DNA of 43,619 nt from assembly GCA_022842865.1 (NCBI GenBank), contig JALHOV010000001.1:1-43619 (forward strand). Reading direction: 5' to 3'. Shown here piece by piece: positions 15,747 through 39,729 of this stretch. The notes below the pieces were generated by a model. It searched no databases. It saw only the letters and a program-made list of their open reading frames with translations, and was not told the origin of the DNA. This DNA comes from Vulcanimicrobiota bacterium. Lineage in GTDB: Bacteria; Vulcanimicrobiota; Xenobia; Xenobiales; JADMJV01. Every line of letters begins with the position of its first letter. Position 1 is the first letter of the stretch. The translations under genes were made by a program, and so were the position numbers.

Positions 15747-16286
15747 TCACTTGCTGTTGACGGCGGCCATGGCCGCCTTCAACTGGTCGGCCTCTTTGGG
15801 GGTCCAGTTGACGAACACAGCGGTAGCCTTGCGTTCTTTGTACACAATAACGGTGTTCTTAACGGTCGGGTCGGTGTTGATCTTGTAGCCCGGCAGCGAC
15901 TCATCCTGAGTCCCTTTTAGTAGGGCCAGACCGACGTTGTCGGCCTTTTCCGCTTGATTCAGCTCCCGAAGATGCTCGGGAGTGTCCTGGACGAAGAGCA
16001 GAAAAGCCTTAAATTCGGCTTTGTTTTCTTGCTCTTGGACGGCCTGGCTCAGCAGGCGCATCAGCGGTTTGGTGTTGGCGTCATCTTTGCCATTGATAAA
16101 GACCTGGCACGCAGGTCGTCGACCATACTTTCAGACGGGGCAGGTATCGGTTCCGGCGTCTGGACCGGTTACATGTTGGGGATGATGGGCGGGCAGGTGA
16201 TCGCCGATGGCGGGGCCGGACTTGGGTACAGCCCAACCCGCCACGGCAATGACGGCCAGCGTCAGCAAAACGCGAAATTTTTGCAT
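15747..16286 (-). CDS. Secreted CxxC-type redox protein with in-frame TGA (candidate selenoprotein, CPV-U); alternatively a nonsense pseudogene
   Basis: ATG 16286 with GGAGG 6 nt upstream and signal peptide MQKFRVLLTLAVIAVAGWA. An in-frame TGA at 16133..16131 follows C-P-V. The frame stays open for 127 more codons, which is the 104-aa track ORF plus 24 start-less codons. A hairpin lies 13 nt after the TGA. Confidence 0.6.
16101..16117 (-). promoter_or_regulatory. SECIS-like hairpin downstream of the in-frame UGA
   Basis: Minus-strand GACCUG-CGUGC-CAGGUC (6-bp stem, 5-nt loop containing GU). It starts 13 nt after UGA 16133..16131, so the loop begins 19 nt after the UGA. Confidence 0.5.
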
Positions 16287-16403
16287 CGCATTCCTCCGAG
16301 GTATAGATTTGAGCCCTGGGGCTCATGGTTCAGAGGTGCGGACAGACGGGCAACAGTCCTGCTGAGCCAGGAAAATGGCTCCGTCCAAAGGAAAGCGAAT
16401 TCC

Positions 16404-17909
16404 ATGAAAAAGCTCTTTGTGACCTGCCTTATCCTCGGGCTCGGGGCCGTACCGGTCGCCGCCCGTCCTCCCGCCTTGGAGAAAGACCTGCTTGTCTCTC
16501 GCTTTGAGAACTACGCCGAGAAATCTCGGCAAGCCTGGGGTACGCCGGGCATGGCGGTGGTGCTGGTGGCCGACGGCAAAGTGCTGTGGTCCAAGGGCTT
16601 TGGCGTGAAAGAGACGGGTGGCAGCGAGCCGGTGGACGTGAAAACCCTTTTCCAGATCGGATCGGTTTCGAAGTCCTTCACCTCCAGTCTGGTGGCCCTG
16701 CAGGTTGACCGAGGCAAGTTGAAATGGGCCGACAAAGTGCTTGACTATGACCCGGATTTTCGCATGTATGACCCCTGGGTGACGCGCGAATTTACCGTCG
16801 AGGACACCATGTCGCAGCGCAGTGGCCAGCCGAGCTACGCCACCGACCTGCTCTCCTTTCTAGGCGCCACTCGGCCCGAGATCGTTCAGGCCTTGCGGGA
16901 AGTGCGACCGGTCTCGAGCTTTCGCAGTCGGTTCGCCTACGTCAACAATCTCTGGCTGGTGTCCGCTCGGGTGCTGGAACGGGTTACCGGCCGGACTTGG
17001 GAACAAGCGGTGGCCTCCGATATTTTTCAACCGCTGGCCATGAGCCGGACCAACACCGGTTTCCAGGGGCTTTGGAGCGATTCCAACCACAGCACTCCGC
17101 ACCAGGGTAAAAAGGGCGCGATTCAACCCTTACGGGACAACTGGCCTTTCAAAGACTGGGTCTATACCTATGGACCGGCCGGTGGCATCAATTCCAACGT
17201 CGAAGACATGGGCAAATACGTCCAGATGCAATTAGGAGTCACTCCCCTCATTCAGGCGGAGAGTCTGGCGGTCATGCACTCGCCCCACGTCCTGGTCGGC
17301 GGAGCTAAAAAAGAACAGCCCAAGGCCATCTTCGAACTCGGGATGGCCAGCTATTGCCTGGGCTGGATTCGCCAGGAACTACACCCCTCCACGCTCATCT
17401 GGCACAATGGCGGCACCAGTGGCTGCAAGACGGTGGTCGGTTTCTGTCCCGACGCCGGCATGGGCATCGTGGTGCTCTCGAACCTGGGCAATACCGAGCT
17501 GCCGGAAGCCCTGATGTATCGCTACTACGATCTCTATTTCGGTCGGCCTGACTACGATTACAGCGACACGTTTCTGCGCAACCAGCATCCCGCCGCAGCC
17601 GCCACTGCGCCGCCCCAAAACCCCAGACCTCCCGCCGCTTTAACCCGCTACGTCGGAAAGTATCGGCATCCCGTCTATGGCCTGGCCGAGGTGCGCCTGG
17701 TGGGGAGCGCTCTGGAGATCGGGCTGGGCAAGACAATGCGGCTCAAACTAACTCCCTGGGATGGCGACAATTTTTCCCATTCCGACCCCACGGAGTCGGA
17801 TGCTCCGCCTCAATTTGCCGGTTTTTCCAGCGACCCCGACGGCAAGTTCTCGCAACTGCACCTGACCCTTTGTGACGACGTGCTGGGCGGACGCTTTGAG
17901 CGTCAGTAG
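16404..17909 (+). CDS. Serine hydrolase, class-C beta-lactamase fold, with a C-terminal extra domain (DUF3471-like)
   Basis: Start chosen at MKKLFVTCLILGLGAVPVAA (signal peptide). Motifs: S-x-x-K (GSVSKSFT), Y-x-N (YVNNLW) and HNGGTSG. It is a paralogue of the 3463..4815 gene. Confidence 0.85.
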   Translation: MKKLFVTCLILGLGAVPVAARPPALEKDLLVSRFENYAEKSRQAWGTPGMAVVLVADGKVLWSKGFGVKETGGSEPVDVKTLFQIGSVSKSFTSSLVALQVDRGKLKWADKVLDYDPDFRMYDPWVTREFTVEDTMSQRSGQPSYATDLLSFLGATRPEIVQALREVRPVSSFRSRFAYVNNLWLVSARVLERVTGRTWEQAVASDIFQPLAMSRTNTGFQGLWSDSNHSTPHQGKKGAIQPLRDNWPFKDWVYTYGPAGGINSNVEDMGKYVQMQLGVTPLIQAESLAVMHSPHVLVGGAKKEQPKAIFELGMASYCLGWIRQELHPSTLIWHNGGTSGCKTVVGFCPDAGMGIVVLSNLGNTELPEALMYRYYDLYFGRPDYDYSDTFLRNQHPAAAATAPPQNPRPPAALTRYVGKYRHPVYGLAEVRLVGSALEIGLGKTMRLKLTPWDGDNFSHSDPTESDAPPQFAGFSSDPDGKFSQLHLTLCDDVLGGRFERQ

Positions 17910-17916
17910 ACGCTAT

Positions 17917-18288
17917 TCATTTCCGCTTGCGCGGAGGAACAGGGATGGATACGTGCGGGCGGTTCTTCTTGCGCGGCCTGGCTACGGGAAGGGGCTCCGG
18001 CTCCTTGGGCTTGGGACCGAGCTTCTTTAGAGCCAACTTTTCCATGGCGTTGTCTTTTTGCTCTTGCTTGGCCCGACTTTCAATGCTGACCACGACCGCC
18101 GGCTCAGACCGTCCGAATCGCTCCAGGTAGTGCTGCTGCACATACTCAGGGACGGAGATGTCAGTCAATTTCGCCAGTGAACGGGGAATGATTTCCAGTT
18201 CACGAGCCATTTGCACTTGTGCGTGAGTCAGGCTGTAGCGCTGGCGCGCATCCACCCACTCTTTCTCTTTGTTATTTAATTTGGCCAC
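17917..18288 (-). CDS. Hypothetical basic protein (Lys/Pro/Arg-rich tail)
   Basis: 123-aa ORF whose start overlaps the upstream response-regulator gene end by 13 nt (same strand). No recognised domain. Confidence 0.45.
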   Translation of the reverse strand: MAKLNNKEKEWVDARQRYSLTHAQVQMARELEIIPRSLAKLTDISVPEYVQQHYLERFGRSEPAVVVSIESRAKQEQKDNAMEKLALKKLGPKPKEPEPLPVARPRKKNRPHVSIPVPPRKRK

Positions 18289-18647
18289 GCCAGCAATGCC
18301 TCAACCTGCTTTTCCAGTTCGGGCAGAACCGCCGGTTTGCGGGCAAAACCCTCGGCACCCATAGCGGCGGCGCGCTGCTTCAGGTCGTCCCATCCGGACA
18401 TAACCAGGAACTTGACCGATTTGCGTTCCGGATCCTGTCGCACTCTTTCCAGCAGTTGCTCACCGCTAATCCCCGGCAAAGTGAGGTCGAGCAGCACCAG
18501 GGCGATATCTGCCTCACGGCCCAAAATCTCCAGGGCTTCCTCGCCACTGGCGGCAAGATGGAGCCCATACGGTTTGCGGCGAAAGATCATTTTATACATA
18601 TTGCGCAGGTCGGCAGCGTCTTCAACGATTAGTATAGATTGACTCAT
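18276..18647 (-). CDS. Single-domain response regulator (CheY-like receiver)
   Basis: Receiver signature: ILIVEDAADLR...ALVLLDLTLPGISG...LVMSGW...GFARKP. Confidence 0.9.
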   Translation of the reverse strand: MSQSILIVEDAADLRNMYKMIFRRKPYGLHLAASGEEALEILGREADIALVLLDLTLPGISGEQLLERVRQDPERKSVKFLVMSGWDDLKQRAAAMGAEGFARKPAVLPELEKQVEALLAWPN

Positions 18648-18667
18648 AGGGCGGGACTTCTTTCCGA

Positions 18668-18680
18668 GGGAGAATCTCCC
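18668..18680. promoter_or_regulatory. 13-bp palindrome in the divergent RR/HK promoter region
   Basis: GGGAGA-A-TCTCCC lies between the response regulator start (18647) and the kinase start (18703). Confidence 0.35.
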
Positions 18681-18702
18681 TTGGCCCGAAAGCTATTGTT
18701 TC

Positions 18703-22103
<3,401 letters not shown>

Positions 22104-22107
<4 letters not shown>

Positions 22108-23033
22108 ACCGATCGACCCCCTGGATCGTGGTAGCCGCTCTGGCTGTGGGTGGATTCGGCGCACCCTCTAAGCCTGACATCGGTGTCAATGGCAGCCTGC
22201 ACGGGCGCCTCCCCTTCCCGGCCGATAACCCCTGGAATCAGCGCATCGACCAGGCGCCAGTGGATCCCAACTCGGCCGCCCTCATCGCCAGCGTGGGCAA
22301 AGACCGGCCTTTGCACTCAGATTTCGGCAGCTTCTATGAAGGTCAACCAATAGGCATTCCTTACGTGGTGGTGGATGGAAGAACCCGGCGCCTGCCCGTA
22401 ACTTTCGAATATGCCGACGAGAGCGACGCCGGCCCCTATCCTGTGCCGGCCAATCCACCCATCGAAGGCGGGCCCCAAGGCGATGGAGACCGCCACATTC
22501 TCATGCTCGACCGCGACGCCTGGAAGCTTTATGAGCTATACCAGGCCTTTCCTAACAGCAAAGGCTTCAAGGCCGGGTCGGGCGCCATCTTTGACCTCAA
22601 CTCCAATCGTTTGCGACCCGACGGTTGGACCTCGGCCGACGCGGCCGGACTGCCCATCTTTCCCGGTCTGGTGCGCTACGACGAAGTGGTCGAACTCAAG
22701 GAAATCCGCCATGCCCTGCGTTTCACCGTGAGCCGCACGCGCAAGGCCTATGTGCCACCGGCTCGCCACTACGCCAGCAATTCCAACGATAAGAATCTGC
22801 CGCCGATGGGAATGCGCGTGCGCCTCAAAGCCTCCTACGACATTTCCGGCTTCCCCAAAAACGTCCAGGTAGTTCTACAGGCTCTCAAAACCTACGGAAT
22901 GATCCTGGCCGATAATGGCTCGGACTGGTTCATCAGCGGCACCCACGACAAACGCTGGAACAACGACGAAATGGCCGAAATCCGGCGCGTTCTGGGCAAA
23001 GACCTGGAGGTCGTCCAAATGAACAGCCGCTAA
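22104..23033 (+). CDS. Conserved secreted hypothetical protein
   Basis: The ATG overlaps the kinase TGA (ATGA). N-terminal hydrophobic signal WIVVAALAVGGFG. Coding-like throughout, with no domain I can name. Confidence 0.6.
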
Positions 23034-23185
23034 CCCGGCTGCGCTCGCAACACTCTCGTTGTCGCTGGTCCTCACACCGCCAGGCCTCGACGCACAACCA
23101 GGGCCCTCCGCCCCGCACGGGCCGACGGGCAAGAGCTCGTCGCCGCGGCCGGCCAGGGACCAGACTGCTTCGCTCGGCATAAACG

Positions 23186-23674
23186 GTGCGGCCTCGTGCG
23201 CCTTCAAATTCCCACCCAATAACGTCGGGTATTTCATTTTGGGTCTGCAACGCAAAATGTCACCCCAGGAGCTGGAAGCTCTGGCCACCGATTGGATTCG
23301 GCGGGCCATCCCCCAATAGGTCCCGCAGTTTTCACATCGCCCTCAAAGGCTATCGCCTCTTCCCGGAATGGTCCCTGACCACGCTGCAATATGCCGTGCC
23401 GCTCATAGAAGTGGTGCTGGGTATGGCCCTGATTCTCTTCCTCTCGCGAAAAGCGGTGGCCCTCTCCACGTTGCTCTTCGCCGCTTTCACGCTGGTGCTG
23501 AGCTACGCCCGGTGGCGCGGAATGCCCCTGATCTGCGGTTGCTTTGGGCGCATCGACCGCAGCCTGCACGAACTCCCCCACGGTCTTCTGCTGAACATCC
23601 TTCTCAATGCGCTGGTGACCCTTGGCCTTCTCTACAGCGCCAGGCCCCAGCACCTGGATTCCAGCCAAAAGTAA
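23186..23674 (+). CDS. MauE/DoxX-like redox-associated membrane protein; N-terminus atypical or possibly truncated
   Basis: YRLFPEW..LQYAVPLIEVVLGMALILF...LLFAAFTLVLSYARWRGMPLICGCFG carries the CGCFG signature of the MauE family. The expected first transmembrane helix is not evident, and the start codon is uncertain. Confidence 0.5.
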   Translation: MRPRAPSNSHPITSGISFWVCNAKCHPRSWKLWPPIGFGGPSPNRSRSFHIALKGYRLFPEWSLTTLQYAVPLIEVVLGMALILFLSRKAVALSTLLFAAFTLVLSYARWRGMPLICGCFGRIDRSLHELPHGLLLNILLNALVTLGLLYSARPQHLDSSQK

Positions 23675-23769
23675 CCGGCGCGGAAGCGCCCCAGTCCCAG
23701 ATCACCGTATGCATCTCGCCGGTAATTGTTACGCGGGATTTTGGCTCGCTGCTACGAACGCTCCCTGCC

Positions 23770-24588
23770 ATGCAGATCAGGCCAGCCCATACTTACCCCA
23801 AGGCGCATCCCGAGGCGTTGACTTTCACGCGGGTGCCTGAGAACAGCCTGATCCGAGACCTGGGCGTCAAACTGGGATTGTGCCAGCCCTCCCAGGAAGC
23901 CGAACTCAATCCCAAAATCTTCAGCCAGCGCTACTGCCAGGAAGTGCAAAAACTCTTGCCTGACGGGGTATTGCCGGACAATTTGGAGCAGGCCTATCAG
24001 TTGGCCCTGGCCGCCCTTCCTCCCCTGCAGGCGGCCGCTCTGGCCGGCGAGGTGGCCCAGGCCCTGGTCAGCCCCGAGCTCGAACAGCGAGCCGCCGAGG
24101 CGGTACCGGTCCGAGCTCACGGCGCCCTGACCCGTCAGGTAGAACAAGGCTGCGAACGGGCCGGAATGCCGATTCCCAATAAAGTATGGGTTATCCGCTC
24201 GGAGGAATGGGATGCCTGTTCCCACTTTGGCGGCATCGCCGTGGCCAGCGCCTACCTCGACTCTGCCCGGCCGGCGCGGCTTCACTTCGTCGTCGGGCAC
24301 GAACTCAGTCACAGTCGCCACCGTGACGACATCGCCATGCTCGGGTTCGAGGCTCTGTCCCAGGGCGTCAGCCAACCGCTGCTCGGCTATGCTCTCAAGC
24401 AAGACCTGAAAGCCCTGCACCACGCCATGGAATTACGCAGCGACCGCGAAGGGTGGGCTTACGCCGAGGCGCAACAGACCGAGCCTCAGCAGCTTTTCCA
24501 GGAAGTAGCCGACCTGCTCGGCCAGCAACAAGAAAGCGATACACACCCCGCCGGGCGGGAACGGCTGCAACAACTCAGACCTCGTTAA
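23770..24588 (+). CDS. M48-like zinc metallopeptidase
   Basis: Start chosen at MQIRPAHTY. Motifs: HExxH in VVGHELSHSRHRDD and a downstream SDTHPAGRERLQQL like the M48 C-terminal motif. Confidence 0.6.
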   Translation: MQIRPAHTYPKAHPEALTFTRVPENSLIRDLGVKLGLCQPSQEAELNPKIFSQRYCQEVQKLLPDGVLPDNLEQAYQLALAALPPLQAAALAGEVAQALVSPELEQRAAEAVPVRAHGALTRQVEQGCERAGMPIPNKVWVIRSEEWDACSHFGGIAVASAYLDSARPARLHFVVGHELSHSRHRDDIAMLGFEALSQGVSQPLLGYALKQDLKALHHAMELRSDREGWAYAEAQQTEPQQLFQEVADLLGQQQESDTHPAGRERLQQLRPR

Positions 24589-27035: not shown

Positions 27036-27078
27036 CTGATTCACTGCTTCCCAAACGGCTCGGATCCCTCTTGCGGCA

Positions 27079-29571: not shown

Positions 29572-30058
29572 AGAAGTTCCTGCGCATCCAGTCTTCGAAA
29601 GCACAGGCATCGTTGTGCTCGATGGCGGCGGTCACCTGGCCGCGCGCATCGGCGATCCAGGTTTCCAGTTGGACCGGAGTGGGCGGGGTGATGCCGGCCT
29701 CGACCAGCACGTCCAAAGCCTGAAAATCCGGCGCGCAGTACCCGATGCTGTGAATCAAAGATCCGGTTTGATGGGCCAGCACGGTGTTCCCCGCCGAATC
29801 CAAAGCGGACAGGTCGGCACCGCTGGCCAACAGCAGACGGTTGCACTCCGCCTGACGCGTCCGCATCAAGGGGGTCTGGCCGGAAACGTCGCGGACATTG
29901 GGATCCAGTCCGAGATCTAGTAAATGGCCAAGGGTATCGGGGTGGTCGCAAACATGCAAAAGCGTTCGCCCCGAGCCGTCGCGAGCGGCTTTGAGTGCTT
30001 CCGGGTCGAGGCCGGCCTCGAGTTGGCCGCGCCGAGCCTGGGAAAAAAGTTCTCTCAC
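29510..30058 (-). CDS. Ankyrin-repeat protein (start uncertain)
   Basis: The sequence GRTLLHVCDHPDTLGHLLDLGLDPNVRDVSGQTPLMRT..LLLASGADLSALDSAGNTVLAH contains two to three ANK repeats. A GTG at 30058 is the first start after the upstream gene's stop. The long track ORF (to 30373) overlaps the PCD gene and was not adopted. Confidence 0.5.
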   Translation of the reverse strand: MRELFSQARRGQLEAGLDPEALKAARDGSGRTLLHVCDHPDTLGHLLDLGLDPNVRDVSGQTPLMRTRQAECNRLLLASGADLSALDSAGNTVLAHQTGSLIHSIGYCAPDFQALDVLVEAGITPPTPVQLETWIADARGQVTAAIEHNDACAFEDWMRRNFSSGSAESARPEACPDSSGSV

Positions 30059-30123
30059 CAGGAAGGCTTCGCGCCGATGGGTCGCCGGCCTGCCAGTTGA
30101 AACAACGGACCAGCCGCCTCCCG

Positions 30124-30564
30124 CTAGCCTGGGCCCTTGAGCAGAGCGTCGGTGCGTTGGGCGCTGGTGATGTCGTTGGCGTGAACGCCGCTGACATCGT
30201 GGGTCCACCAGCCGACGGTGACTTTGCCCCATTCGGTGAGCAGCGTGGGGTGGTGGCCCTGCACTTCCGCGAATTCGGCGACCTTGTTGCTGAAAGTCAT
30301 GGCTTGCTGAAAGTCGGCAAAGGCAATCTGACGTTCCAGTCTGGGCAGACCATCGACGCGTTTCAGGTTCCAACCGGGTAACTTTTCCATGAGACCGGGC
30401 AGCTGTTCTTCCGGGATGGCGCCGCCCACCAGCGGATACATCGGCTTGATCAGGTCGGGCTGTGGCAGGCTGGACTGGAACTGATCCTGCACCACGGGGG
30501 CCTGCACGGCCGGTCGGTAGCTGAGACGAAGGGTTGGGTTAGCGGCCAAAGCTTGCAGTTTCAT
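30124..30564 (-). CDS. Pterin-4a-carbinolamine dehydratase (PCD/DCoH) domain protein with an N-terminal extension of about 45 aa
   Basis: Motifs: LPGWNL....LERQIAFADFQQAMTFSNKVAEFAEVQGHHPTLLTEWGKVTVGWWTHDVSGVHANDI. ATG 30564 lies 1 nt after the upstream stop. An internal start at MYPLVGG is also possible. Confidence 0.7.
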   Translation of the reverse strand: MKLQALAANPTLRLSYRPAVQAPVVQDQFQSSLPQPDLIKPMYPLVGGAIPEEQLPGLMEKLPGWNLKRVDGLPRLERQIAFADFQQAMTFSNKVAEFAEVQGHHPTLLTEWGKVTVGWWTHDVSGVHANDITSAQRTDALLKGPG

Positions 30565-30565
30565 C

Positions 30566-31963
30566 TTAGATGTGGGGGTTCGGCACGGGGCGCTTGCCCA
30601 GGATTTCAATTTCCTGGTCCAGCCGGCTGAGAAAGAAATTCTGCAGCCATTCATGGCCTCGGTTCAGATTAGGCAAGCCCTTATCGACACCATACTCCTT
30701 ACCCTGACCACTGACTTTGAGGGCGGCGTAAAGTGCACGAGGCACCACTCCCGCGCCATCTTTCAGGTAATTGCTGGGCATCATTAAATGTCCGCGGTCG
30801 TGGTGAATATTAAAACCGACTAGTTCTACCGTGCCTTTCAGAGCGGGGTCAGAAATATTCTCGACCGCGTCCTTGTACTCACGGTACCAAACTTCGCTGC
30901 GCTTATCCAGCTTCTTTACCTGCTCGGGGCTCATCTGGTTGCGTTCGATGTATTCCTTGCGTTCCACGAAGATACCCGAGTTGTGGCGCACGTCGTGGAG
31001 AAAAAAGTCGCCGCCGGGACGGACGAAGCCATCGGCCGGAATCGGATTATCAGTAACACCCGCCAGATAGATGGGATGATTCATCATACGCATGAAAATG
31101 TCGCCTTCCAGCTCATCCATGGAGGGCAGATTGAGCATCTCCAACTTGTCGGGGTTCTGAAAGCTGTCGACGTATTGCTTTTCCACGCGGTCGTAGCCCT
31201 TGGAGCCGGCCTTGGCCTGGAAGACGCTGAACTCGTTGTCGCGGTAACGGCGGAACTGCTCCTGAATGGTAACGTCTTCGTGTCCCTCGATGTGGCGATC
31301 CACCTCCAGGAAGGCCCGCTGGCCCAGGCTGAGCTTCTCGTGGTCGAAGTGGCCCAGAGCGTAGGAAGCGAAGTGTCCGATTTCCTGGATGCGCTTGTAG
31401 CTGACCTGTCCACCCTCGCTGAGTTGATCCGACTCGTTCTTGAGAGCGTGCAGAAACTCGATTCCGACGCCTCGGTCCTTGATTTTTTCGGTGCGGCCCA
31501 GGGCTGCTGGACTCAAGAAGAAAGTATTTTGCAGCTGCTCCTGCTCGGCTTTGAGGGCTTCGATCTTGCCGCCGATTTTGTCGCCCAGGGTCTTCAAGAA
31601 GGGAACGCCATACTCCGAGAAATCGAAGGAGTAAGGGTCATTAGGAGTGAGCTTCTTCTGCTCATCGAAACGCTGGCTCATCTTGGCCAGAAAAGCATCG
31701 GGGTCTTTCAGAACAAGCGCCAGCCCCGGGTATTTCTTGGCCATCTCTGCGTTGTTGGCTTCGTAGGCCTTCTGCTCTTCGGGCGAGATGGAGAGATCGG
31801 CGGGTGCTTCGAAGCGCAGCGCCTTCATCAGCTTGGGCGACTGGTAGGCCTGGCTGAGGTTGTCGACCGGGTTGTTGTCATTGGCCGACTGCAACGCTCG
31901 GGGCGCCAACGCCTTCAAGCAACTCAAGGGTTTGGTCCACATGGAAATTGCGTTCATAGTCAT
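30566..31963 (-). CDS. Hypothetical protein (465 aa), no signal peptide, lower GC than its neighbours
   Basis: Long ORF with coding-like, Lys/Glu-rich composition. His-rich motifs FLHDVRHNSG and FNIHHDRGH. No family recognised. Confidence 0.6.
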   Translation of the reverse strand: MTMNAISMWTKPLSCLKALAPRALQSANDNNPVDNLSQAYQSPKLMKALRFEAPADLSISPEEQKAYEANNAEMAKKYPGLALVLKDPDAFLAKMSQRFDEQKKLTPNDPYSFDFSEYGVPFLKTLGDKIGGKIEALKAEQEQLQNTFFLSPAALGRTEKIKDRGVGIEFLHALKNESDQLSEGGQVSYKRIQEIGHFASYALGHFDHEKLSLGQRAFLEVDRHIEGHEDVTIQEQFRRYRDNEFSVFQAKAGSKGYDRVEKQYVDSFQNPDKLEMLNLPSMDELEGDIFMRMMNHPIYLAGVTDNPIPADGFVRPGGDFFLHDVRHNSGIFVERKEYIERNQMSPEQVKKLDKRSEVWYREYKDAVENISDPALKGTVELVGFNIHHDRGHLMMPSNYLKDGAGVVPRALYAALKVSGQGKEYGVDKGLPNLNRGHEWLQNFFLSRLDQEIEILGKRPVPNPHI

Positions 31964-32010
31964 CTGCCTCTGCTCTCCTTGGCCCGGCTGATTGCCGTGT
32001 GCTTAAACTA

Positions 32011-32036
32011 AGGATAGCAGGCGGAGGTGATAAAAA
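32011..32036 (-). promoter_or_regulatory. Promoter-like motif, copy B (minus strand TTTTTA-N13-CTATCCT)
   Basis: Plus-strand AGGATAGCAGGCGGAGGTGATAAAAA, 48 nt upstream of ATG 31963. It is 23/26 identical to the copy at 36740..36765. Confidence 0.45.
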
Positions 32037-32140
32037 ACTCATACAGCCTGCCCGAATGTTAACTCCAAGTTAAAGCTTGAAGGCCTTTTTTCCGGCACTC
32101 GCCAGGGCGATTAACGAACGTTTAACTTTACCCGAAAGGC

Positions 32141-32806
32141 TCAGGGGCCGCTATTTTCCAGGCGGACGGCCAGGTTAAGCTGGTGGCGTTCGTTCAGGCC
32201 GGCTTTGTCGGCCTTGCGGCCGCCGCGGCGGGCCAGAGTGACATTGAGCTGCACCACCTTGCTGAGTTCGTCGCTGCTGAGCTGGAAGCTTTCGATATTT
32301 TTAGACAGGACCTGGAGCGAGGAGTACCCAGGGTTAAAGGTCGGGTTATCGCTGAGCAACGCGGACAGGTTGCCCATGGGTCCCTGGTAGGGCGCTCCGG
32401 CTGGTTTGTAGTATTGCTTGGCCAGCAGCCCGGGGTTGGCGCGGGTGGCATAGAGAACCATGTAGCGGTCCCAAAGTGGAGCGGCCGAGCTGGTGTTGAA
32501 CTTGCTGCCGTCGCTCCAGTTTTCCAGGCACGGCAGGCTGAGCGCGTGGCGAGCCACCGTTTGCCCTTCGGGGTTGGTGGTGGTGCGGGTACTGTCGGTT
32601 TCCAGGCCGCCAAAGTCGGAGCGCAGCAATTCCATCCGCACGGCCAGCAACACGCGGCGCCCTTCACTTTCCAGGCCGGCGCGGGCCTGGCCCAACAGAG
32701 CGGCGCGACTGCCCCATTGAAACAGTTCGAAGCAAACCAGCAAGGCCATGCTCAGCACAAAGCAGGCCACCATCACTTCGGCCAGAGTGAAGGCTCTCCG
32801 TTTCAA
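32141..32806 (-). CDS. Pseudopilin (prepilin-type N-terminal cleavage/methylation domain)
   Basis: The TTG start at 32806 gives MKRRAFTLAEVMVACFVLSMALLV and overlaps the upstream TGA (TTGA). The longer track ORF N-terminus was not adopted. Confidence 0.75.
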   Translation of the reverse strand: MKRRAFTLAEVMVACFVLSMALLVCFELFQWGSRAALLGQARAGLESEGRRVLLAVRMELLRSDFGGLETDSTRTTTNPEGQTVARHALSLPCLENWSDGSKFNTSSAAPLWDRYMVLYATRANPGLLAKQYYKPAGAPYQGPMGNLSALLSDNPTFNPGYSSLQVLSKNIESFQLSSDELSKVVQLNVTLARRGGRKADKAGLNERHQLNLAVRLENSGP

Positions 32807-33210
32807 GGGGTCACCAGGCGGCTCACGCTGGCTTCCAGACGCCCCTGACCCTGTCGCCGGCCACCCCGTGGCTGGGTCCACCAAACGTGCACGTCCATGT
32901 AGTAAATGGCGGGTTGACCCGGGGTCACCACCGTGGCACTGGAGCTGAGACGGTAGCTGAACTCCTGGGCAGCGCGGGCGTCGTGGGTATAGAGAGACAC
33001 TTTCCCATCCAGGGGTGGCGGATCGAAATTGCTGGCGCGGATGGCCTCTTCCAAGATCGAATCGGCCAGCTGCAAACCCGCCGAGCTATCGCCCGATTTG
33101 TCAGCACTGCCCAGCAGACGAAGAAATAGAAATCCCAGAGCCACTATCATCAAGGCGATCAACCCCAGAGCCAGCACCGTCTCCAGAAGTGAGAAAGCCC
33201 GGCGCCTCAT
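32803..33210 (-). CDS. Pseudopilin (prepilin-type N-terminal cleavage/methylation domain)
   Basis: MRRRAFSLLETVLALGLIALMIVALGF. The ATG overlaps the upstream stop (ATGA). Confidence 0.8.
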   Translation of the reverse strand: MRRRAFSLLETVLALGLIALMIVALGFLFLRLLGSADKSGDSSAGLQLADSILEEAIRASNFDPPPLDGKVSLYTHDARAAQEFSYRLSSSATVVTPGQPAIYYMDVHVWWTQPRGGRRQGQGRLEASVSRLVTP

Positions 33211-35414
33211 TCGCTCCAGAAGAACACGGGCACCAGTCCCAGCCGGCTCAACTCGAATTGCTCCTCCACCAGGCTGGGGTCAAAAACAAATTTCCCTTTC
33301 TGCAAATGCTCAAAACCAATGTTCCCTTTCGCAATCATGGCGCCAAACAAATTAAAGGTATTGTGAATACTGGCAAACAAATTGTCTTCAGAATAGAGAA
33401 GCCCCCCGAAAATGAGCTCTTGAAAGCTGCCCAGGTAAGGATCCAAGGCCGACACCGCCAGGTTCTGCATGTAATCGCCCAGGGTACGACCGTCGTTGCG
33501 AGCGTCCTGGTCGTAAGCCTGCACCTGATTGAGAATCGCGGCCGTGATCAAGTCGTCGTTGCTCGAATAGGTGGGGTCGAAAGCATCCAGAAGGTCGGTC
33601 CTGGGGGACCCCAGATCGACCGACTTGAGGAATTCACGGATGCGCAGGTAGTTGCCCAGAGTGAGCGGCACCGGATTGCCATCGGAATCGATGGTGTGCT
33701 CATCAATGAAGCGAGCAACCAGGTCCTGGCCGTTGATGGAAAGGAAGTCAGGCGGACGGACGCCCGGGTTGTGCACGGAAAGGGGAATCTGCTCGAGGGG
33801 AATGCCACCGAAAGAAGCCTGGGGCTTGGGATTGCCGTAATCCACCGGTTGATTGCGCAGGCCGGGAGCACCGAAACGGTCGACCGATCCTACCATGGTC
33901 AGGCGAGCGCTGGTGCTGGACTGGTGGAATTGGTCGAACAGGTCGGCCGAGGCAGGATGATTGTATTCAGAAAGGATCGCCGTTTGAAAAAGCGGTAGAT
34001 CGTTGGGAGCCATATAGGCGGGCAGCGAAATGGCCGTGCTGTTGACTTCGGAAAACTTGGCCACTCCTTGAGTGACCACGGCCATGCCATCGGTACGCGT
34101 CGAGGACATGAAGCTGTTACCCATCACGTTCAGGTTACCGCCCTGCCCGTTGTTCTTATTGACGAAAATCTGACCGTTGCCGACCAGATCGCCCACGACC
34201 GTAAGATCGCCACTCACGGTCAGGCGATCTTTGGGATCCTGGGCGGCCTTGGGAATGCCGCTCGCGTCATAACCAATGCCCAGGCTGATGATGGTGGGTT
34301 CGGGCTCCGAAGTGCTGTAGTGGGGCTCTGCTGGCGGTACGTTGACCCAGGTGCTGCGCGGAACCATCCCTTCCACCGTCAAGTTGCCCGCCACTTCGAC
34401 GTTGCCGAGCGGAATGAAGCGGAAGTCGCGCAGAGCCACTTTGTCGGTGAGGTCGGGCGAACCGCCGTTGCCGTTCTGGTCCTTGTAGGTCACCTGATCG
34501 GGAGCCACAAAAGTGTAAGTGCCGGCCGGGATGGTCTTGGGCGCTTCCTGAGGTTGCACCAGTTTATCGGGGGTGAAGGGCTGGTTGCTCTGGCTGCCAG
34601 TACGGATCTTGGCCTGCATCTGGGTGGATGCAGCGGCCGTGGCGGTGGGGTTGTTTTGCAATGCCGTTCCCGGAGTTGTGACCAAAAAGTCACCCAAGGA
34701 ATCAAAAGAGACCGAGGCATTGACGGCCACGTCGCCCCCCGAATGGATCGATCCGTTGCCGCCGTGAAATTTGACCTGGCTGATATTGGGAAAAACGACC
34801 TGGTTCTGGGCTTTGACCACGTTGCCGCGCGGCAGGCTGCTGGCGAACTGCATGACGTCCCCGGTAGCGCCGTTGGGCACATCCACGGCCACGCTCTCGC
34901 CAGCCGAGAGGGAATTGGTGAGCAGCGAACCCTTGGCCAGCAGGGCTTCGATATGCCGCTGGGAACCTTCGTAGTTGGCCTCCACCAACACCAGGGCACA
35001 GTGCGGGGCAACCTTGACCTTGGTTCGGCTCCATTCAGGAGCATCCAGCGCGGCCAGACCCTTGAGGTTGTTGAGGACCTGCACGCGAAATTGCCCCCCG
35101 GTGGCTTTGTCCTCTCCCCTGACCAAATTCGTGGACGCGCTGTTGCCCTGCTCCAAGATGCGCAGGTGGCTGTCATCGAGGGTGGTGGCGTTTCCGAAGG
35201 CTCCTTTGGACCAGCCCGGCTGTTGAGCCAGCCGCGCCCGCGCGTAGTCCAATCCGGAGTAGGCAGTTTTGAGGAGAACCTGGCGACGCCGCAGTTGTTC
35301 CCCGGAAATCAGGTTGCCCCGTGTGGCAACGACTAAGGAGGCGCTCAGCATGGCTAAAACGGTCACAGCCATGAGCACCGTGATCAAGGCAACCCCCCGG
35401 TTTGCTCTCGCCAT
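33207..35414 (-). CDS. Large GspK/PilX-like minor pseudopilin (735 aa)
   Basis: The N-terminus MARANRGVALITVLMAVTVLAMLSASL matches the GspK-type leader (RGVALITVL). It is followed by a long Gly/Asn/Thr-rich extracellular region. Confidence 0.65.
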   Translation of the reverse strand: MARANRGVALITVLMAVTVLAMLSASLVVATRGNLISGEQLRRRQVLLKTAYSGLDYARARLAQQPGWSKGAFGNATTLDDSHLRILEQGNSASTNLVRGEDKATGGQFRVQVLNNLKGLAALDAPEWSRTKVKVAPHCALVLVEANYEGSQRHIEALLAKGSLLTNSLSAGESVAVDVPNGATGDVMQFASSLPRGNVVKAQNQVVFPNISQVKFHGGNGSIHSGGDVAVNASVSFDSLGDFLVTTPGTALQNNPTATAAASTQMQAKIRTGSQSNQPFTPDKLVQPQEAPKTIPAGTYTFVAPDQVTYKDQNGNGGSPDLTDKVALRDFRFIPLGNVEVAGNLTVEGMVPRSTWVNVPPAEPHYSTSEPEPTIISLGIGYDASGIPKAAQDPKDRLTVSGDLTVVGDLVGNGQIFVNKNNGQGGNLNVMGNSFMSSTRTDGMAVVTQGVAKFSEVNSTAISLPAYMAPNDLPLFQTAILSEYNHPASADLFDQFHQSSTSARLTMVGSVDRFGAPGLRNQPVDYGNPKPQASFGGIPLEQIPLSVHNPGVRPPDFLSINGQDLVARFIDEHTIDSDGNPVPLTLGNYLRIREFLKSVDLGSPRTDLLDAFDPTYSSNDDLITAAILNQVQAYDQDARNDGRTLGDYMQNLAVSALDPYLGSFQELIFGGLLYSEDNLFASIHNTFNLFGAMIAKGNIGFEHLQKGKFVFDPSLVEEQFELSRLGLVPVFFWSE

Positions 35415-35476
35415 ACTACCCCTTCATTTCAGGATCTACCCCCTGGTTTCTGGCACTGGACCGATTGGTCCTGCTT

Positions 35477-36541
35477 TCAGCGATTGCTGTAAAACTGTCG
35501 CACCCGAGTCGGATCCAGCTCGGTATAGCCAGCGTGCTGGTCGGTCAGCTGGTTGCGCATGAGATTTTCAACCTGGGCGCTGCTCAGCATAGGATTGCGG
35601 CGGTGCAGCTCAGCCATGACACCGGAAACGCGCGGAGCGGCGAAGCTGGTGCCCACGGACGGGGAAGTCTGGCCGGGAGCCAGGTTGTTGGTGGGCGCCA
35701 TTCCCTCGGCGTAAACGATGTTGCCGCGCTCCTCGGCGCTAAAGCCGGAGCGGCCGATGCCGCGCATGCTGGCGCCCACGGCAGTGACGTCCTCGGTGAC
35801 GTTAAAGCTGCGCTGGAAATCCCCCGGCACTTTGACGCCGGGGTGAATTCCCACTGCGCCGGTGTTGGCCACGGCCACCACCACCGAGTTGTGTTGACCC
35901 TCGAAGCGCTTGACTGCCTGACGGTAGTCACGGCTGGCGCGGGCCACCTCCGGGTTGTTGTCGAGCGCCTGGTTGGTGGTGTTCACCAGGCCCTGCTGAA
36001 GTTTGAGCATTTCCGGGCCGGAAACGTTGGGGTCGGGCGACTGCAGCTTGACCCGGTCGACTCCGTAGGCGCGGCTGGCATTGTCAAACGATTGGGGCGA
36101 ATGGAACATGCGGCCAATCATCACGCGCACCACGTCGGCTTTGTTGAGGCCGCCGGAAATGTTCATCACCGAGTTTTTGACGCCGGCCTTGCTCTGCTGG
36201 TTGAGGGAGTCCGTGTAGGCTTGTAGCGACCCGCTGACGAGCTCGGTGGCATCCTTGCGCAAGGCCACCCGGGCCTGCTCGGGGGTCAGTTTCTTCTGGT
36301 CGAGCAAGGGGGCAGAACCCGCTCGGAATTGCGGTTCGGTCCGCGTGATGGGACCGCCGAAGCCGGACTCGCGCACGGTTCGGTTGACTAGCGACCCGTG
36401 TCCTTCGTAGCGGTCGTTGCAGTCGAAGCCGCCGTCGAGAACAATGACGGAGCCGGGCCGAGTGGGTGCGGTGGTGGTGCCGTTGCTATTGCGGCAGACG
36501 GCGGGAATCTGAGGAACCTTGCTAATATCCATCGATTTCAT
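35477..36541 (-). CDS. Subtilisin-like serine peptidase (S8 family), no obvious signal peptide
   Basis: Catalytic Asp (VIVLDGGFD), His (YEGHGSLV), oxyanion Asn (VAVANTG) and Ser (GTSFAAPRVSGVMAEL). ATG 36541 was chosen; TTG 36550 and ATG 36532 are also possible. Confidence 0.8.
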   Translation of the reverse strand: MKSMDISKVPQIPAVCRNSNGTTTAPTRPGSVIVLDGGFDCNDRYEGHGSLVNRTVRESGFGGPITRTEPQFRAGSAPLLDQKKLTPEQARVALRKDATELVSGSLQAYTDSLNQQSKAGVKNSVMNISGGLNKADVVRVMIGRMFHSPQSFDNASRAYGVDRVKLQSPDPNVSGPEMLKLQQGLVNTTNQALDNNPEVARASRDYRQAVKRFEGQHNSVVVAVANTGAVGIHPGVKVPGDFQRSFNVTEDVTAVGASMRGIGRSGFSAEERGNIVYAEGMAPTNNLAPGQTSPSVGTSFAAPRVSGVMAELHRRNPMLSSAQVENLMRNQLTDQHAGYTELDPTRVRQFYSNR

Positions 36542-36637
36542 TGTGAGCAATTAGCGTTGCCTTAACGTTAATTGAGACTCCACCTTATTAATCCAATGTT
36601 AAATTCTAGACACGATTCCATTCGGAACTTTTGCCAC

Positions 36638-36685
36638 GAAAAACAAAATAAGCCTTTAGAAATGCTACTAACATTTCTAAAGGCT
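36638..36685 (-). terminator. Strong intrinsic terminator in the 5' region of the S8 gene
   Basis: Perfect 14-bp stem AGCCTTTAGAAATG / CATTTCTAAAGGCT with a 7-nt loop. On the minus strand it is followed by TATTTTGTTTTT. Confidence 0.75.
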
Positions 36686-36739
36686 CGGTGCAGGTTCGCT
36701 TCCCTTGGAACATTGCCGCTGTTGCGGTCCTTGAAATAG

Positions 36740-36765
36740 AGAATAGCCGGCCGAGGTGATAAAAA
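36740..36765 (-). promoter_or_regulatory. Promoter-like motif, copy A (minus strand TTTTTA-N13-CTATTCT)
   Basis: Plus-strand AGAATAGCCGGCCGAGGTGATAAAAA, about 55 nt upstream (minus sense) of the terminator hairpin and about 190 nt upstream of the S8 start. Confidence 0.45.
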
Positions 36766-36812
36766 GGTGGTGAAGCCAGGGTTTTTGTGAACAGGTTGTG
36801 AACTTTGTTGGG

Positions 36813-37502
36813 ATGAAGTTACGATGGCTTTTGTGGGTTGCACTGACCGGGGTGGCTGTGGCCCAGGACACCTCCCACCTCCTCTGGATCATGCCCACGG
36901 CCAGCGGCGTGGCCACGCTGCAAGCCGAGGCTTCCGGCGCGGTGCGAGTGGCCCGGGCGCAGCAGCTCGAAAGCGGCTGCTGGCGGCTGCAACCCGTTCA
37001 GGGGGGCTATCACGTATTGTGCAGCGCCTTTGGCGGAAAGCGCGGCTTGAGTCTGCGCCAGGGCAAGCCCTACCTGGCCCAGGGGCCGGGGGAGCGCTGG
37101 CAAATCCGGCAGTCGAGCGCCGGCGTCTTCCACTTGCAGTGCGCCAAAGGCCGCCTGGGGAACCACGACTGGACGCTCTGGAGCCGCCAGCGCCTGGACC
37201 GGCGCCCCGAGCCGGGCAACTATCTTCGCTCCGACTTGGGGCAGTATTGGCGGGTTTTGCGTAACGATCTGGCAGGCCGCTCCGAGCCCAGGCCCAGCGC
37301 CCCGGTCGTGAAAAAATTCCGCCGCGACACGGTGTTCCTGGCGGACTGGGGGCGCGGCGGCTCGGATGAAGTGCTCTGGAACGAGGTGGACGAAAACGGC
37401 AACACCTGGCTCAAAGTGAAAGACCGAAAGGGAAATCCTTGCAATTGCTACGTGCGGGCCAACTCGACCTGGCTCAAGCCTTTCGACCTGGACAACCTTT
37501 AA
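36813..37502 (+). CDS. Secreted hypothetical protein
   Basis: Start chosen at MKLRWLLWVALTGVAVAQ (signal peptide). No confident domain. Confidence 0.55.
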   Translation: MKLRWLLWVALTGVAVAQDTSHLLWIMPTASGVATLQAEASGAVRVARAQQLESGCWRLQPVQGGYHVLCSAFGGKRGLSLRQGKPYLAQGPGERWQIRQSSAGVFHLQCAKGRLGNHDWTLWSRQRLDRRPEPGNYLRSDLGQYWRVLRNDLAGRSEPRPSAPVVKKFRRDTVFLADWGRGGSDEVLWNEVDENGNTWLKVKDRKGNPCNCYVRANSTWLKPFDLDNL

Positions 37503-38164
37503 TCTAAGTAACCGACGTAGTCCTTGTCCTTGAAGGCCATGGGCACCCAGTTGTTGCCGTCGCGTGCGAAACAGGTGACCTGCTCGACGTGGGTGCGACT
37601 GACGACCTGCGGCTCTTCGAAAGTGGCCACCGTGCCGGCTGGCGTTTCGGCGCTACCGATCTGGACGCGGGCGGGATCGACCTTGGTGTAGTGGTAGGCG
37701 GTGTATTCGACCGCACCCTCGTGTTCATAGTGTTCTTTGGTGCTGATGTTGTGGAATTTCTCGGTGTTCCAGAGCGTCTCGGCGTGCTTAGGCAACTTCT
37801 TGCCGCCTCGCAGGGTGGCCATCTCCTTGGGCGGTCCGCCAATAGTGGTGACTTCGCGTTTCTGGATCTTGCCATCGGCAGCCTGGAAAACGTAGCTGCG
37901 GCGGTCTCGCCAGTAGCCGAGGCATTCGCCCCGCTCTTTGGCCGGGGTGGCTTCGAGAAACTTCTTGAGGTCATCCACGTTCTTGAGAGGCCGCCAGCTG
38001 TCGGATTGGCTGGAGTCGCGCACGACCAGCACGGGTTCGTGGGCGGCCACCTGACCGTCGCAGTCGCGATCGAGTTTGAGGACGGGTTCCCCGGTGACGG
38101 TCTTGGCATTGACCAGATAACTGGCCTTAAAGCCTTGCAATTCGTTCAGGCGTGTGTTGATCAT
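37499..38164 (-). CDS. Hypothetical protein (221 aa), no signal peptide
   Basis: Coding-like, Lys/Glu-rich ORF. The promoter-like motif lies 37 nt upstream. Confidence 0.55.
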   Translation of the reverse strand: MINTRLNELQGFKASYLVNAKTVTGEPVLKLDRDCDGQVAAHEPVLVVRDSSQSDSWRPLKNVDDLKKFLEATPAKERGECLGYWRDRRSYVFQAADGKIQKREVTTIGGPPKEMATLRGGKKLPKHAETLWNTEKFHNISTKEHYEHEGAVEYTAYHYTKVDPARVQIGSAETPAGTVATFEEPQVVSRTHVEQVTCFARDGNNWVPMAFKDKDYVGYLD

Positions 38165-38200
38165 GTGGTTGAAGGTCCCAAAGAAAGATTATTTCTTTTA

Positions 38201-38226
38201 AGAATAGTCGAAGGACCCAGAAAAAA
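38201..38226 (-). promoter_or_regulatory. Promoter-like motif, copy C (minus strand TTTTTT-N13-CTATTCT)
   Basis: Plus-strand AGAATAGTCGAAGGACCCAGAAAAAA, 37 nt upstream of ATG 38164. It shares the outer blocks and the 13-nt spacing with copies A and B. Confidence 0.35.
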
Positions 38227-38238
38227 TCCTGAAAAGAC

Positions 38239-38865
38239 GTGGATATGAGTTATCGCAAAGCCGCTCAGTGGATCGATGAGCAATTTCAGTTAGACGATCC
38301 CCAGCAAGCCCTACACAACGCGCTCGGGGAGCTGGAACTGGTGCCTCCGCGCAAGCGGGACGCAGACTGGCACTACCTGCGCGGCTTCTGCTGCTACGAC
38401 CTGGGACAGGCCGAGGAGGCCGAGCGCGAATTTCGCACCTCTCTGCTACTCCAGCCGGAACAACGCTGGGCTGTTCTTTACCTGGGTCAAACGCTCTTCG
38501 ACCGGGGAGAGTATGCCGAAGCCCTCCCCTACTTCCAGCGAGCCCGCCTCGAGCAACCCTGGCGCGTTCTGAAGAATCAGGAAATGATGCTGTGCTGTCG
38601 CCTCTACACCCAGAGCCGACTGCCGAATATCCAGTTGCTTCGCGACCTGGTCGAGCTTTTCGAAAAGCATCCGAAGGATGCCCCGGAACCGACCGATATG
38701 GTGCTCTGCCTCGACCGCCTGCAGGAGCGCATCCCGGTCAAGCGCCGGGCCGAGTGGTGGGAATGCCTGCAGCGACTGGTTAAGGTCGGCGGCGGCTCAG
38801 GCCTGCAGCCCGTCATGGACCGTCTCGAAGCCAGCCTCGCGCCAACCGTCCAGGCCTCCAAGTAA
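38239..38865 (+). CDS. TPR-like hypothetical protein
   Basis: TPR-like helical pairs: GQAEEAEREFRTSLLLQPEQRWAVLYLGQTLFDRGEYAEALPYFQRA. Confidence 0.55.
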   Translation: MDMSYRKAAQWIDEQFQLDDPQQALHNALGELELVPPRKRDADWHYLRGFCCYDLGQAEEAEREFRTSLLLQPEQRWAVLYLGQTLFDRGEYAEALPYFQRARLEQPWRVLKNQEMMLCCRLYTQSRLPNIQLLRDLVELFEKHPKDAPEPTDMVLCLDRLQERIPVKRRAEWWECLQRLVKVGGGSGLQPVMDRLEASLAPTVQASK

Positions 38866-39729
38866 AGGCTGTACCTTCTCGAGGCCTTTCTTTTGTAAGA
38901 GCAGCGCCACACGGGCGCTGGTTGCTTCACTGGGTCAACTACAATAGACCACGATGGGAAGGTTGCGCGGGAGGCGTTCCAGGGAGTCGAGTGACACCAC
39001 GTGAGCCCCTGGAATGATGTAGGGGTCCGCTTGGCGCTGCAGCTCCTGGCGCAGGTCCACGATGTAGGGATCCTGCCCACCATCGATCATCTCTTTGAGC
39101 TGCTGGGGTGTGAGGCGGGCCGCCCGCCAGCGGCGCAAAAAGAACCATCGGCGAGCGAAACGGTAGCCCAGGTGAATTCCGATGACCACCACGCCAATCT
39201 GCACCAAAGTGGCGCCGGCGCCTTCCACCCATGCGATCAGCTCTTCTAACTGCTCGCGCAGCAGCCAGCCCAGGCCACCATAGACCGCCACCCAAAGACT
39301 GCTTCCAACGGTGTCCAGGGCGATAAATCGGTAGACGGGCACCCCGGTCAGGCCAGCCATCGGCGGCGCCAGCGTGGAAAGGCCGGGCAGGAATTTGGCC
39401 ACGACCAGCACCTTTTCGCCCCAGCGTTGGAACGTGCCGGCGGTGCTGTTCACGCAATGATCGGGTTCGATAGCCAGGCGGCAGAGAGTTCTCAGAACAC
39501 TTATACCGCGCGACCGGCCCAGGCCGTACCAGGCGAGGTCGCCGAGCACGGCGGCGCAGACAGTGATGAGCAAGGCCGGTACCAGGTCCAGGTAGCCCAG
39601 GCCCACCAGCGCTCCGGCCGCCATCAGCACGGGGGCCGCCGGGAAGGGCAGTCCCAGTTGCTCCAGCAGGACGGTAGCGAAAAGCAAAGGATAACCGTGG
39701 GTTTTAAGACTTTCGAGAGTGGCGCTCAC
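38797..39729 (-). CDS. DedA (VTT) membrane domain fused to rhodanese, with an in-frame TGA in the rhodanese active-site loop (candidate selenoprotein); ends at 38935 without read-through
   Basis: The GTG start at 39729 overlaps the FMN reductase TGA (GTGA). DedA motifs: LLEQLGLPFPAAP and AKFLPGLSTLAPPMAG. The rhodanese stops at IVVYCS-TGA (38937..38935). The same frame then continues as PSEATSARVALLLQKKGLEKVQPLLGGLDGWREAGFETV..., ending at TGA 38799..38797 and completing the domain. Confidence 0.6.
38902..38920 (-). promoter_or_regulatory. SECIS-like hairpin downstream of the in-frame UGA
   Basis: Minus-strand CAGCGCC-CGUGU-GGCGCUG (7-bp stem, 5-nt loop containing GU). It starts 14 nt after UGA 38937..38935, so the loop begins 21 nt after the UGA. 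Confidence 0.5.

Follow-up and report, generated by a model that had tools for sequence, protein, structure and literature searches.

Two predicted selenocysteine sites with compact SECIS-like hairpins in a thioredoxin-fold gene and a DedA-rhodanese gene of Vulcanimicrobiota

Introduction

The recoding of UGA as selenocysteine (Sec) by SelB and a selenocysteine insertion sequence (SECIS) is a textbook mechanism. Here, we analyse two in-frame UGA codons, each followed closely by a short hairpin, on contig JALHOV010000001.1 of a Vulcanimicrobiota bacterium; the entire 43,619-bp contig is the window referred to throughout. Site 1 lies in the gene of a secreted thioredoxin-fold protein (protein 1), and site 2 in the gene of a membrane protein in which a DedA domain is fused to a rhodanese domain. 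Judged from sequence comparison, both are very probably genuine bacterial SECIS-directed (SelB-type) Sec sites at redox or catalytic cysteine positions.

Bacterial SECIS (bSECIS) elements have been condensed into a general model: a loop of 3-9 nt on a stem of 4-16 bp, a G in the first two loop positions that is usually followed by G or U, a UGA-to-loop distance of 16-37 nt, and a minimum free energy (MFE) of at most -7.5 kcal/mol (PMC13188914). In Escherichia coli fdhF, whose sequence we fetched, the UGA is codon 140 and the loop GGUC occupies nt 22-25, with its G-U at nt 23-24. For bacterial selenoproteins generally, the SECIS has been reported to be inherited with its gene (PMC1794560), and a selenoprotein gene is usually recognised in the field by the existence of Cys homologues, of TGA homologues and of a bSECIS-like hairpin (PMC12013277). 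Two described groups come close to the site-2 protein: the NF041203 family is listed as 'rhodanese-like form 3, CxU' in a 2026 review (PMC13188914), and the fusion of DedA (COG0586) with rhodanese is an architecture already described, of unknown role (PMC10127716). Our literature searches found no description of a DedA-rhodanese selenoprotein or of a Sec form of this fusion, and no report of Sec use in Eremiobacterota, WPS-2 or Vulcanimicrobiota.

Results

Both UGA codons stand at conserved cysteine positions

The motifs given for the two sites in the initial annotation, together with their common layout of UGA, spacer, stem and loop, are present exactly as written and are found on the minus strand. 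Its statements that both TGAs lie in frame inside coding sequence and fall on redox cysteines hold as well: past the UGA, the frame stays open for 127 more codons at site 1 and for 45 at site 2, and the aligned residue is Cys in 21/21 and 111/111 full-length homologues, respectively.

Read through its UGA, the site-2 gene spans 38797..39729 on the minus strand, from a GTG start at 39729 to a true TGA stop at 38799-38797, and encodes ~310 aa; public gene calls end the protein at 264 aa (P0027). Pfam assigns it a PF09335 VTT/DedA membrane domain followed by a C-terminal PF00581 rhodanese domain, which is the fusion architecture. The in-frame UGA, codon 265 (38935..38937, minus), is predicted to encode the Sec of a VVYCS-U-PSEATS motif and aligns with the catalytic Cys in the rhodanese active-site loop. 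Homologues read YC[S/T]-C-PNE at this position, and the same alignment column holds the canonical catalytic Cys of the solved rhodaneses 6mxv (YFYCGGGFRS) and 3foj (YIICKAGGRS). In NCBIfam, the rhodanese domain matches NF041203 ('rhodanese-related (seleno)protein') best, with 56.7 bits over profile positions 20-122 of 126. The site-2 protein stays below the whole-protein cutoff of 115 bits set for this family (rhodanese_LYCAU) and has its C-x-U/C motif, all members carrying YC[S/T]-U/C-P.

The site-1 gene (15747..16286, minus), translated through its UGA, yields a protein of 179 aa with a signal peptide and ends at a true TGA stop at 15749-15747. Its in-frame UGA is codon 52 (16131..16133, minus), the predicted Sec of GTDTC-P-V-U-KYG, and aligns with the second Cys of a CxxC motif that appears as CP[V/P]C in the homologues (34-45% identity). 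Since it is the second redox Cys that aligns with the UGA, protein 1 would be of the CxxU type. In Pfam and NCBIfam searches, protein 1 had no match at E <= 0.01, placing it outside the curated families (AhpC-TSA, Redoxin, Thioredoxin_8, NCBIfam). Its fold was assigned on an AlphaFold model of a 44% identical homologue (P0006), which stands in for the protein of the window. The model (predicted local distance difference test score, pLDDT, 89.7) has a thioredoxin fold, and its CxxC lies at the N-terminal end of helix 1, as in thioredoxin-fold thiol:disulfide oxidoreductases. In Foldseek, it matched 3gl3, 4nmu, 8t4c and ResA with a probability of 1.0 and template modelling (TM) scores of up to 0.82 (target-normalised), the best structural matches being TlpA, ResA, DsbE and peroxiredoxins.

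The genetic code of the window is standard: TGA terminates 12 of the 21 genes checked, and apart from the two sites none of these genes contains an internal stop.

The two hairpins share their anatomy and fit the bacterial SECIS model

The site-1 hairpin, GACCUG-CGUGC-CAGGUC (16101..16117, minus), has a 6-bp stem after a 13-nt spacer, with 19 nt from UGA to loop; the site-2 hairpin, CAGCGCC-CGUGU-GGCGCUG (38902..38920, minus), has a 7-bp stem after a 14-nt spacer, with 21 nt from UGA to loop. Both stems are perfect, G+C-rich and situated within coding sequence, and both carry a CGUGY pentaloop. With free energies (dG) of -8.5 (site 1) and -12.5 kcal/mol (site 2) for the isolated hairpins, the two elements fall within all four limits of the published bSECIS model (19 nt, 6 bp, CGUGC, -8.5; 21 nt, 7 bp, CGUGU, -12.5). 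The G-U of the loop is found at nt 24-25 in site 1 and at nt 26-27 in site 2, that is, 1-3 nt further from the UGA than in fdhF. Each hairpin belongs to the MFE fold when 60 nt are folded; at 54 nt, site 1 folds differently. The codon phase of the loop differs between the sites, G|CG UGC encoding Ala-Cys in site 1 and CGU GU|G encoding Arg-Val in site 2; given these different phases and residues, the shared loop is a likeness at the RNA level, with no shared peptide behind it. We rejected the idea that the hairpins are terminators, as no T tract follows either of them, and Rfam searches over both sites, at gathering thresholds and at permissive E-values, gave no relevant match.

How often would such hairpins be expected? 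Over the whole window and both strands, hairpins that combine a CGUGY loop with 6 or more Watson-Crick pairs occur twice, at sites 1 and 2. Across 300 dinucleotide shuffles, the mean was 0.033 such hairpins, or 0.003 when a TGA 12-15 nt upstream was also required, figures that overstate the significance because the CGUGY descriptor was set after the sites had been seen. The strict descriptor was also run on 294 kb of fetched loci (~0.6 Mb of strand sequence), where it matched nothing beyond the two gene families. A relaxed version of it (spacer 11-17 nt, stem of 5 bp or more in which G-U counts as a pair, loop CGKGY) returned 31 matches in these loci, of which 29 are in-frame family TGAs and two are weak 5-bp chance matches. 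The terminal TGAs of the two selenoprotein genes themselves, both ordinary stops, are not followed by a CGKGY hairpin. In both genes, TGA is thus predicted to be read as Sec inside and as stop at the end of one and the same mRNA.

At site 2, the hairpin accompanies TGA and is lost in Cys-type genes

For site 2, a metagenome scan returned 51 loci. In an unbiased census, the codon is TGA in 24 loci (21 distinct sequences, including the window) and TGC or TGT in 18 (17 distinct). The orthologues come from many metagenomes and span 33-87% protein identity, and all TGA loci have an open frame past this codon, in which the peptide PNEA[T/S]SAR[V/A]AL continues. The hairpin is present in 21/21 distinct TGA-type sequences and in 0/17 Cys-type sequences, with a mean best dG of -11.6 for the TGA type versus -6.1 for the Cys type (Mann-Whitney p = 2.6e-6). 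All TGA-type loops are 5 nt long, as CGGGC (9), CGUGU (8), CGUGC (3) or CGGGU (1), and 20/21 of these sequences combine a stem of 6-8 bp with a spacer of 13-15 nt. The Cys-type gene L011 encodes the same SARAAL peptide by other codons and has no hairpin.

The substitution pattern within the hairpin bears the marks of selection on pairing and loop. In an alignment of 14 orthologues that excludes the window, 95.6% of cells are paired and two pairs have double changes; the pair of columns 18-36, both of them third codon positions, takes four forms (C-G, G-C, G-U and U-G). L021 and L024 show a compensatory change from AGC to AGU together with GCG to GCA at two synonymous sites, and in a subgroup with an Ala -> Val replacement pairing is kept through a U-G wobble. 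The Arg codon of the loop is CGU (11) or CGG (10) in all TGA-type sequences; CGC and CGA do not occur there. Cys-type genes that have Arg at this position use CGC and CGG. The limitation to CGU and CGG agrees with the published rule that G or U comes after the loop G. R1, a covariance model derived from the 14 site-2 orthologue hairpins, finds site 2 with 58.5 bits (E = 3e-13) and does not recover site 1, its best other match having E = 0.83; a model of a single family therefore does not generalise.

Among full-length relatives, the one closest to the site-2 protein (76% identity) is encoded in a Vulcanimicrobiota metagenome-assembled genome (MAG; JAFKGI010000019.1, L006:10793) and has TGC in place of TGA. 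Its peptide has diverged (TAANVAM versus TSARVAL) and the hairpin is absent, which points to a recent Sec/Cys switch inside the phylum. This Cys-type locus was the only one returned by a scan of genome contigs.

At site 1, TGA and stem are retained in relatives

Orthologues of protein 1 with 64-72% identity, from Vulcanimicrobiota and unclassified MAGs (L001, L002, L004/L005), have TGA at the same codon and a hairpin of the form (A)GACCUG-CGUG[C/U]-CAGGUC(U). The same-codon TGA is also found in L065 and L066, giving five distinct sequences besides the window, and the stem is kept in 6/6 TGA-type sequences when the window is included. Among codons whose amino acid is invariant, the third position varies in 43/57 gene-wide versus 1/6 in the hairpin, the single exception being the loop Y (Fisher p = 0.008). 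L065 encodes CPP-U-KYGNRPAVQVW with the stem AGACCUG/CAGGUCU, and L066 encodes CPV-U-KYGLTPAVQVW with the stem ACACCUG/CAGGUGU; in L066, a G-C pair has been swapped for C-G in a compensatory manner, and the loop is CGGUG in both. The Cys-type gene L058 has an NRPAVQVW peptide identical to that of L065, encoded by different codons, and lacks the hairpin.

A profile search of 1.84 billion representatives returned 1168 members of the site-1 family at E <= 1e-3. Among the top 150 representatives, ~35 are fragments of 120-130 aa that begin just past the CxxC, and both fragments whose DNA was obtained (L065:577-621 and L066:29-73) belong to TGA-type genes. Many Sec forms of the protein-1 family are probably hidden in public data as split open reading frames (ORFs).

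Genomic context and other candidates in the window

Upstream of the DedA-rhodanese gene lies a gene for an NADPH-dependent flavin mononucleotide (FMN) reductase (39726-40376, minus), whose stop overlaps the DedA-rhodanese GTG start in a GTGA at 39726-39729 (minus). The overlap suggests translational coupling of the two genes, the FMN reductase being a possible redox partner. This neighbour is not broadly conserved and recurs in one other locus only (L013). On the other side, a convergent tetratricopeptide (TPR) repeat gene (38239-38865, plus) shares 69 nt (38797-38865) with the 3' end of the site-2 gene; its stop lies 37 nt before the site-2 hairpin, which is without a T tract and not terminator-like.

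The window contains 11 other combinations of a TGA with an open frame and a downstream hairpin. None of the five that were checked against the gene map held up, each being out of frame, the terminal stop of a gene, or antisense to the likely gene. A long alternative frame at 11270-11833 (plus) contains a TGA at 11270 with a downstream hairpin; 236 codons ahead of this TGA and 186 codons past it are open. The frame overlaps the 3' part of a GHL10 glycosyl-hydrolase ORF (10239-11651), whose Pfam match ends at residue 322 of 470, and it may be an off-frame artefact of high G+C content or reflect a frameshift in the GHL10 gene.

Discussion

We favour the reading that both UGAs are decoded as Sec under the direction of their hairpins. 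In each mRNA, Sec would be inserted at an in-frame UGA that occupies a redox or catalytic Cys position: at site 1 as the second residue of the CxxC pair in a secreted thioredoxin-fold oxidoreductase, at site 2 as the catalytic residue of the rhodanese domain in a DedA-rhodanese membrane protein. The signal would be a short, perfect, in-gene hairpin whose pentaloop starts 19-21 nt past the UGA and presents C-G-[U/G] on its 5' side. One SelB would read every SECIS of the cell at a fixed distance from the UGA, and the likeness of the two hairpins would follow from this need for a single SelB to read them all; by descent the hairpins are unrelated, each being inherited with its gene. The initial annotation had already proposed SelB-dependent recoding, and the comparison speaks clearly for it: Sec and Cys forms pair up, TGA and hairpin are conserved together in orthologues, the hairpin is lost in Cys forms, the stems show compensatory changes, and their anatomy fits the bSECIS model. 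From these observations we infer SelB binding and actual Sec insertion. By the usual criteria of the field (PMC12013277), both genes qualify as selenoprotein genes.

Several points weigh against this reading. Neither the window nor any fetched locus harbours selA, selB, selD or tRNA-Sec (selC): a Pfam scan of ~40 window ORFs found no SelA, SelB or SelD, and ARAGORN detected no tRNA-Sec in the window or in 57 loci. Short-range thermodynamic z-scores are -0.49 for site 1 and -1.22 for site 2, neither of them significant. In this DNA of 60% G+C, 121 TGAs are flanked on either side by 40 or more open codons, and 13 of these have some hairpin with a free energy of -7 kcal/mol or below; the general bSECIS model, as implemented here, is permissive, being passed by 10.4% of the 1175 TGA triplets in the window. 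A UGA with just any hairpin is thus weak evidence, whereas the particular layout common to both sites is no product of chance. Stem conservation is to a large extent confounded with conservation of the encoded peptide. At site 1, the covariation rests on one sequence, with 71/500 shuffles reaching the observed value, and two of the six Cys-type controls (L059 and L061) form stable hairpins of another kind whose distance would be compatible. Because of the hairpins in these controls and the single-sequence covariation, the RNA evidence for site 1 appears good, yet weaker than that for site 2.

Two sets of hairpins met in this context deserve mention in their own right. Those of L059 (608-664) and L061, at -11.8 and -9.9 kcal/mol, have a G-first loop at a SECIS-compatible distance and could be remnants of SECIS elements that outlived a conversion from Sec to Cys, or products of chance in G+C-rich DNA. 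In the window, a strong G+C hairpin of 10-11 bp, accompanied by a T run (15715-15738), lies between a convergent gene (14686-15714) and the true stop of the site-1 gene, and is probably a bidirectional terminator. It follows a genuine terminal TGA and still passes the general bSECIS model, which is another sign of how permissive that model is.

Could the UGAs be decoded without SelB and Sec? Read-through is one possibility, and insertion of Cys or Trp by a suppressor or near-cognate tRNA is another; the hairpin would then act as a generic stimulator of read-through or pausing. Such decoding would be in keeping with the failure to find Sec machinery in the available sequence and with hairpins that are small and thermodynamically unremarkable. 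It would leave unexplained why both sites lie exactly at catalytic Cys positions for which Cys-codon homologues exist, why the loops fit the SelB-type G-[G/U] rule at a distance within 1-3 nt of that in fdhF, and why the best match of the rhodanese domain is a curated selenoprotein family. TGA is, moreover, the main ordinary stop codon here, and we consider SelB-free decoding improbable.

A subtler alternative accepts the Sec sites as true and disputes the role of the hairpins: the CGUGY likeness would be a coincidence aided by coding constraint, the hairpins would be by-products of the peptide and of G+C-rich codons, and the SelB determinant would be located elsewhere. The peptides encoded by the stems (RPA-QV and SAR-AL) are indeed conserved, R1 misses site 1, distant members of family 1 have the loop CGGUG, and the Cys controls L059 and L061 carry hairpins of their own. 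However, if peptide and codon usage produced the hairpins, the Cys-type genes L011 and L058 should have them too, as they encode the same peptides, and they do not. Nor would by-products be expected to show compensatory changes at synonymous sites, frozen synonymous sites in the site-1 hairpin, or a loop Arg codon limited to CGU and CGG, and no alternative conserved structure was seen downstream. We regard this alternative as quite improbable.

The remaining two explanations fare worse. That the TGAs are real stops, marking pseudogenes, split genes or assembly errors, is what public gene callers imply with their truncated or split ORFs (P0027, P0001-P0004, P0026). This is highly improbable, since the same TGA recurs in dozens of independent assemblies with an open downstream frame under purifying selection, a split would break the thioredoxin fold and the rhodanese active-site loop, and no start codon for the downstream part is present in the window. 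A reassigned code with UGA as a sense codon for Trp or Gly, for which the two in-frame TGAs are the only support, is effectively refuted by the 12 of 21 genes that end in TGA, by the lack of any other internal TGA in the 21 genes checked, and by the aligned homologue residue, which is Cys and not Trp or Gly.

SECIS-directed Sec insertion thus remains our preferred reading, and it does not need everything that the initial annotation had attached to it. The CGUGY loop had been taken for a lineage-specific consensus; this does not stand, as the site-2 loop is CG[U/G]G[C/U] across many metagenomes and distant site-1 relatives have CGGUG. Nor is CGUGY invariant. Each hairpin travels with its gene, and R1 misses site 1. 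As a descriptor for finding more selenoproteins it was unproductive, with no further selenoprotein gene in the window or in the fetched loci. The narrow descriptor is best regarded as a clean local marker that is tied to each gene family, with no general lineage consensus behind it.

What, then, do the two sites add? The mechanism itself is known; new are a CxxU thioredoxin-fold selenoprotein family, apparently uncatalogued, and the Sec form of the DedA-rhodanese fusion. Every public record seen annotates the two genes wrongly, as truncated or split ORFs. The protein-1 family has no Pfam or NCBIfam model and appears to include many unannotated Sec forms; Sec-type-looking fragments make up about a quarter of its top representatives. 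The Sec form of the DedA-rhodanese protein is common in soil metagenomes, occurring in more than half of the metagenome loci sampled, and would equip a membrane-anchored sulfurtransferase of unknown role with selenium in its active site. The sites also imply Sec decoding in Vulcanimicrobiota/Eremiobacterota relatives. Taking these points together, it is tempting to propose that protein 1 represents an uncatalogued and widespread selenoprotein family (C-P-x-U-K-Y-G), that the Sec form of DedA-rhodanese is undescribed, and that both use a compact class of SECIS common to soil bacteria including Vulcanimicrobiota (Eremiobacterota), with a perfect 6-9 bp stem and a C-G-[G/U]-N-N pentaloop 19-21 nt from the UGA. 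We would give this combined proposal about an even chance.

Finally, we would like to place the two proteins and their hairpins next to the systems that they most resemble. The site-2 rhodanese has the same C-x-U in the rhodanese domain as the NF041203 rhodanese-like selenoproteins of form 3, with the predicted Sec at the catalytic position; unlike the stand-alone NF041203 proteins of ~126 aa, it forms the C-terminal part of a DedA (COG0586-type) membrane protein. Protein 1 resembles the thioredoxin-fold thiol:disulfide oxidoreductase selenoproteins (TlpA-, peroxiredoxin (Prx)- and DsbE-like) in its fold and in the redox motif at the N-terminus of helix 1, and, like them, would have Sec for one Cys of a CxxC motif alongside many Cys homologues. 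It differs from them in lying outside all Pfam and NCBIfam families by sequence and in having a signal peptide. Its predicted motif is CxxU (C-P-V/P-U-K-Y-G), whereas the TlpA- and redoxin-type selenoproteins listed in the recent review are UxxC or UGC (PMC13188914).

Among SECIS elements, the two hairpins depart from known bSECIS in that no Rfam model covers them, and in that no pair can form between the first loop base (C) and the fifth (C/U), whereas loop positions N1 and N2 do pair in most published elements (PMC13188914). Compared with the element of E. coli fdhF, which is ~40 nt long, they are reduced to a short perfect stem of 6-7 bp (6-9 bp in relatives) with a pentaloop, and lack both the bulged U and a conserved extended lower helix reaching the UGA. 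In their essential layout, however, they are like fdhF: a stem-loop within coding sequence just 3' of an in-frame UGA, whose small apical loop begins 19-21 nt from the UGA, compared with 18 nt in fdhF, and has G and then U or G towards its 5' side.

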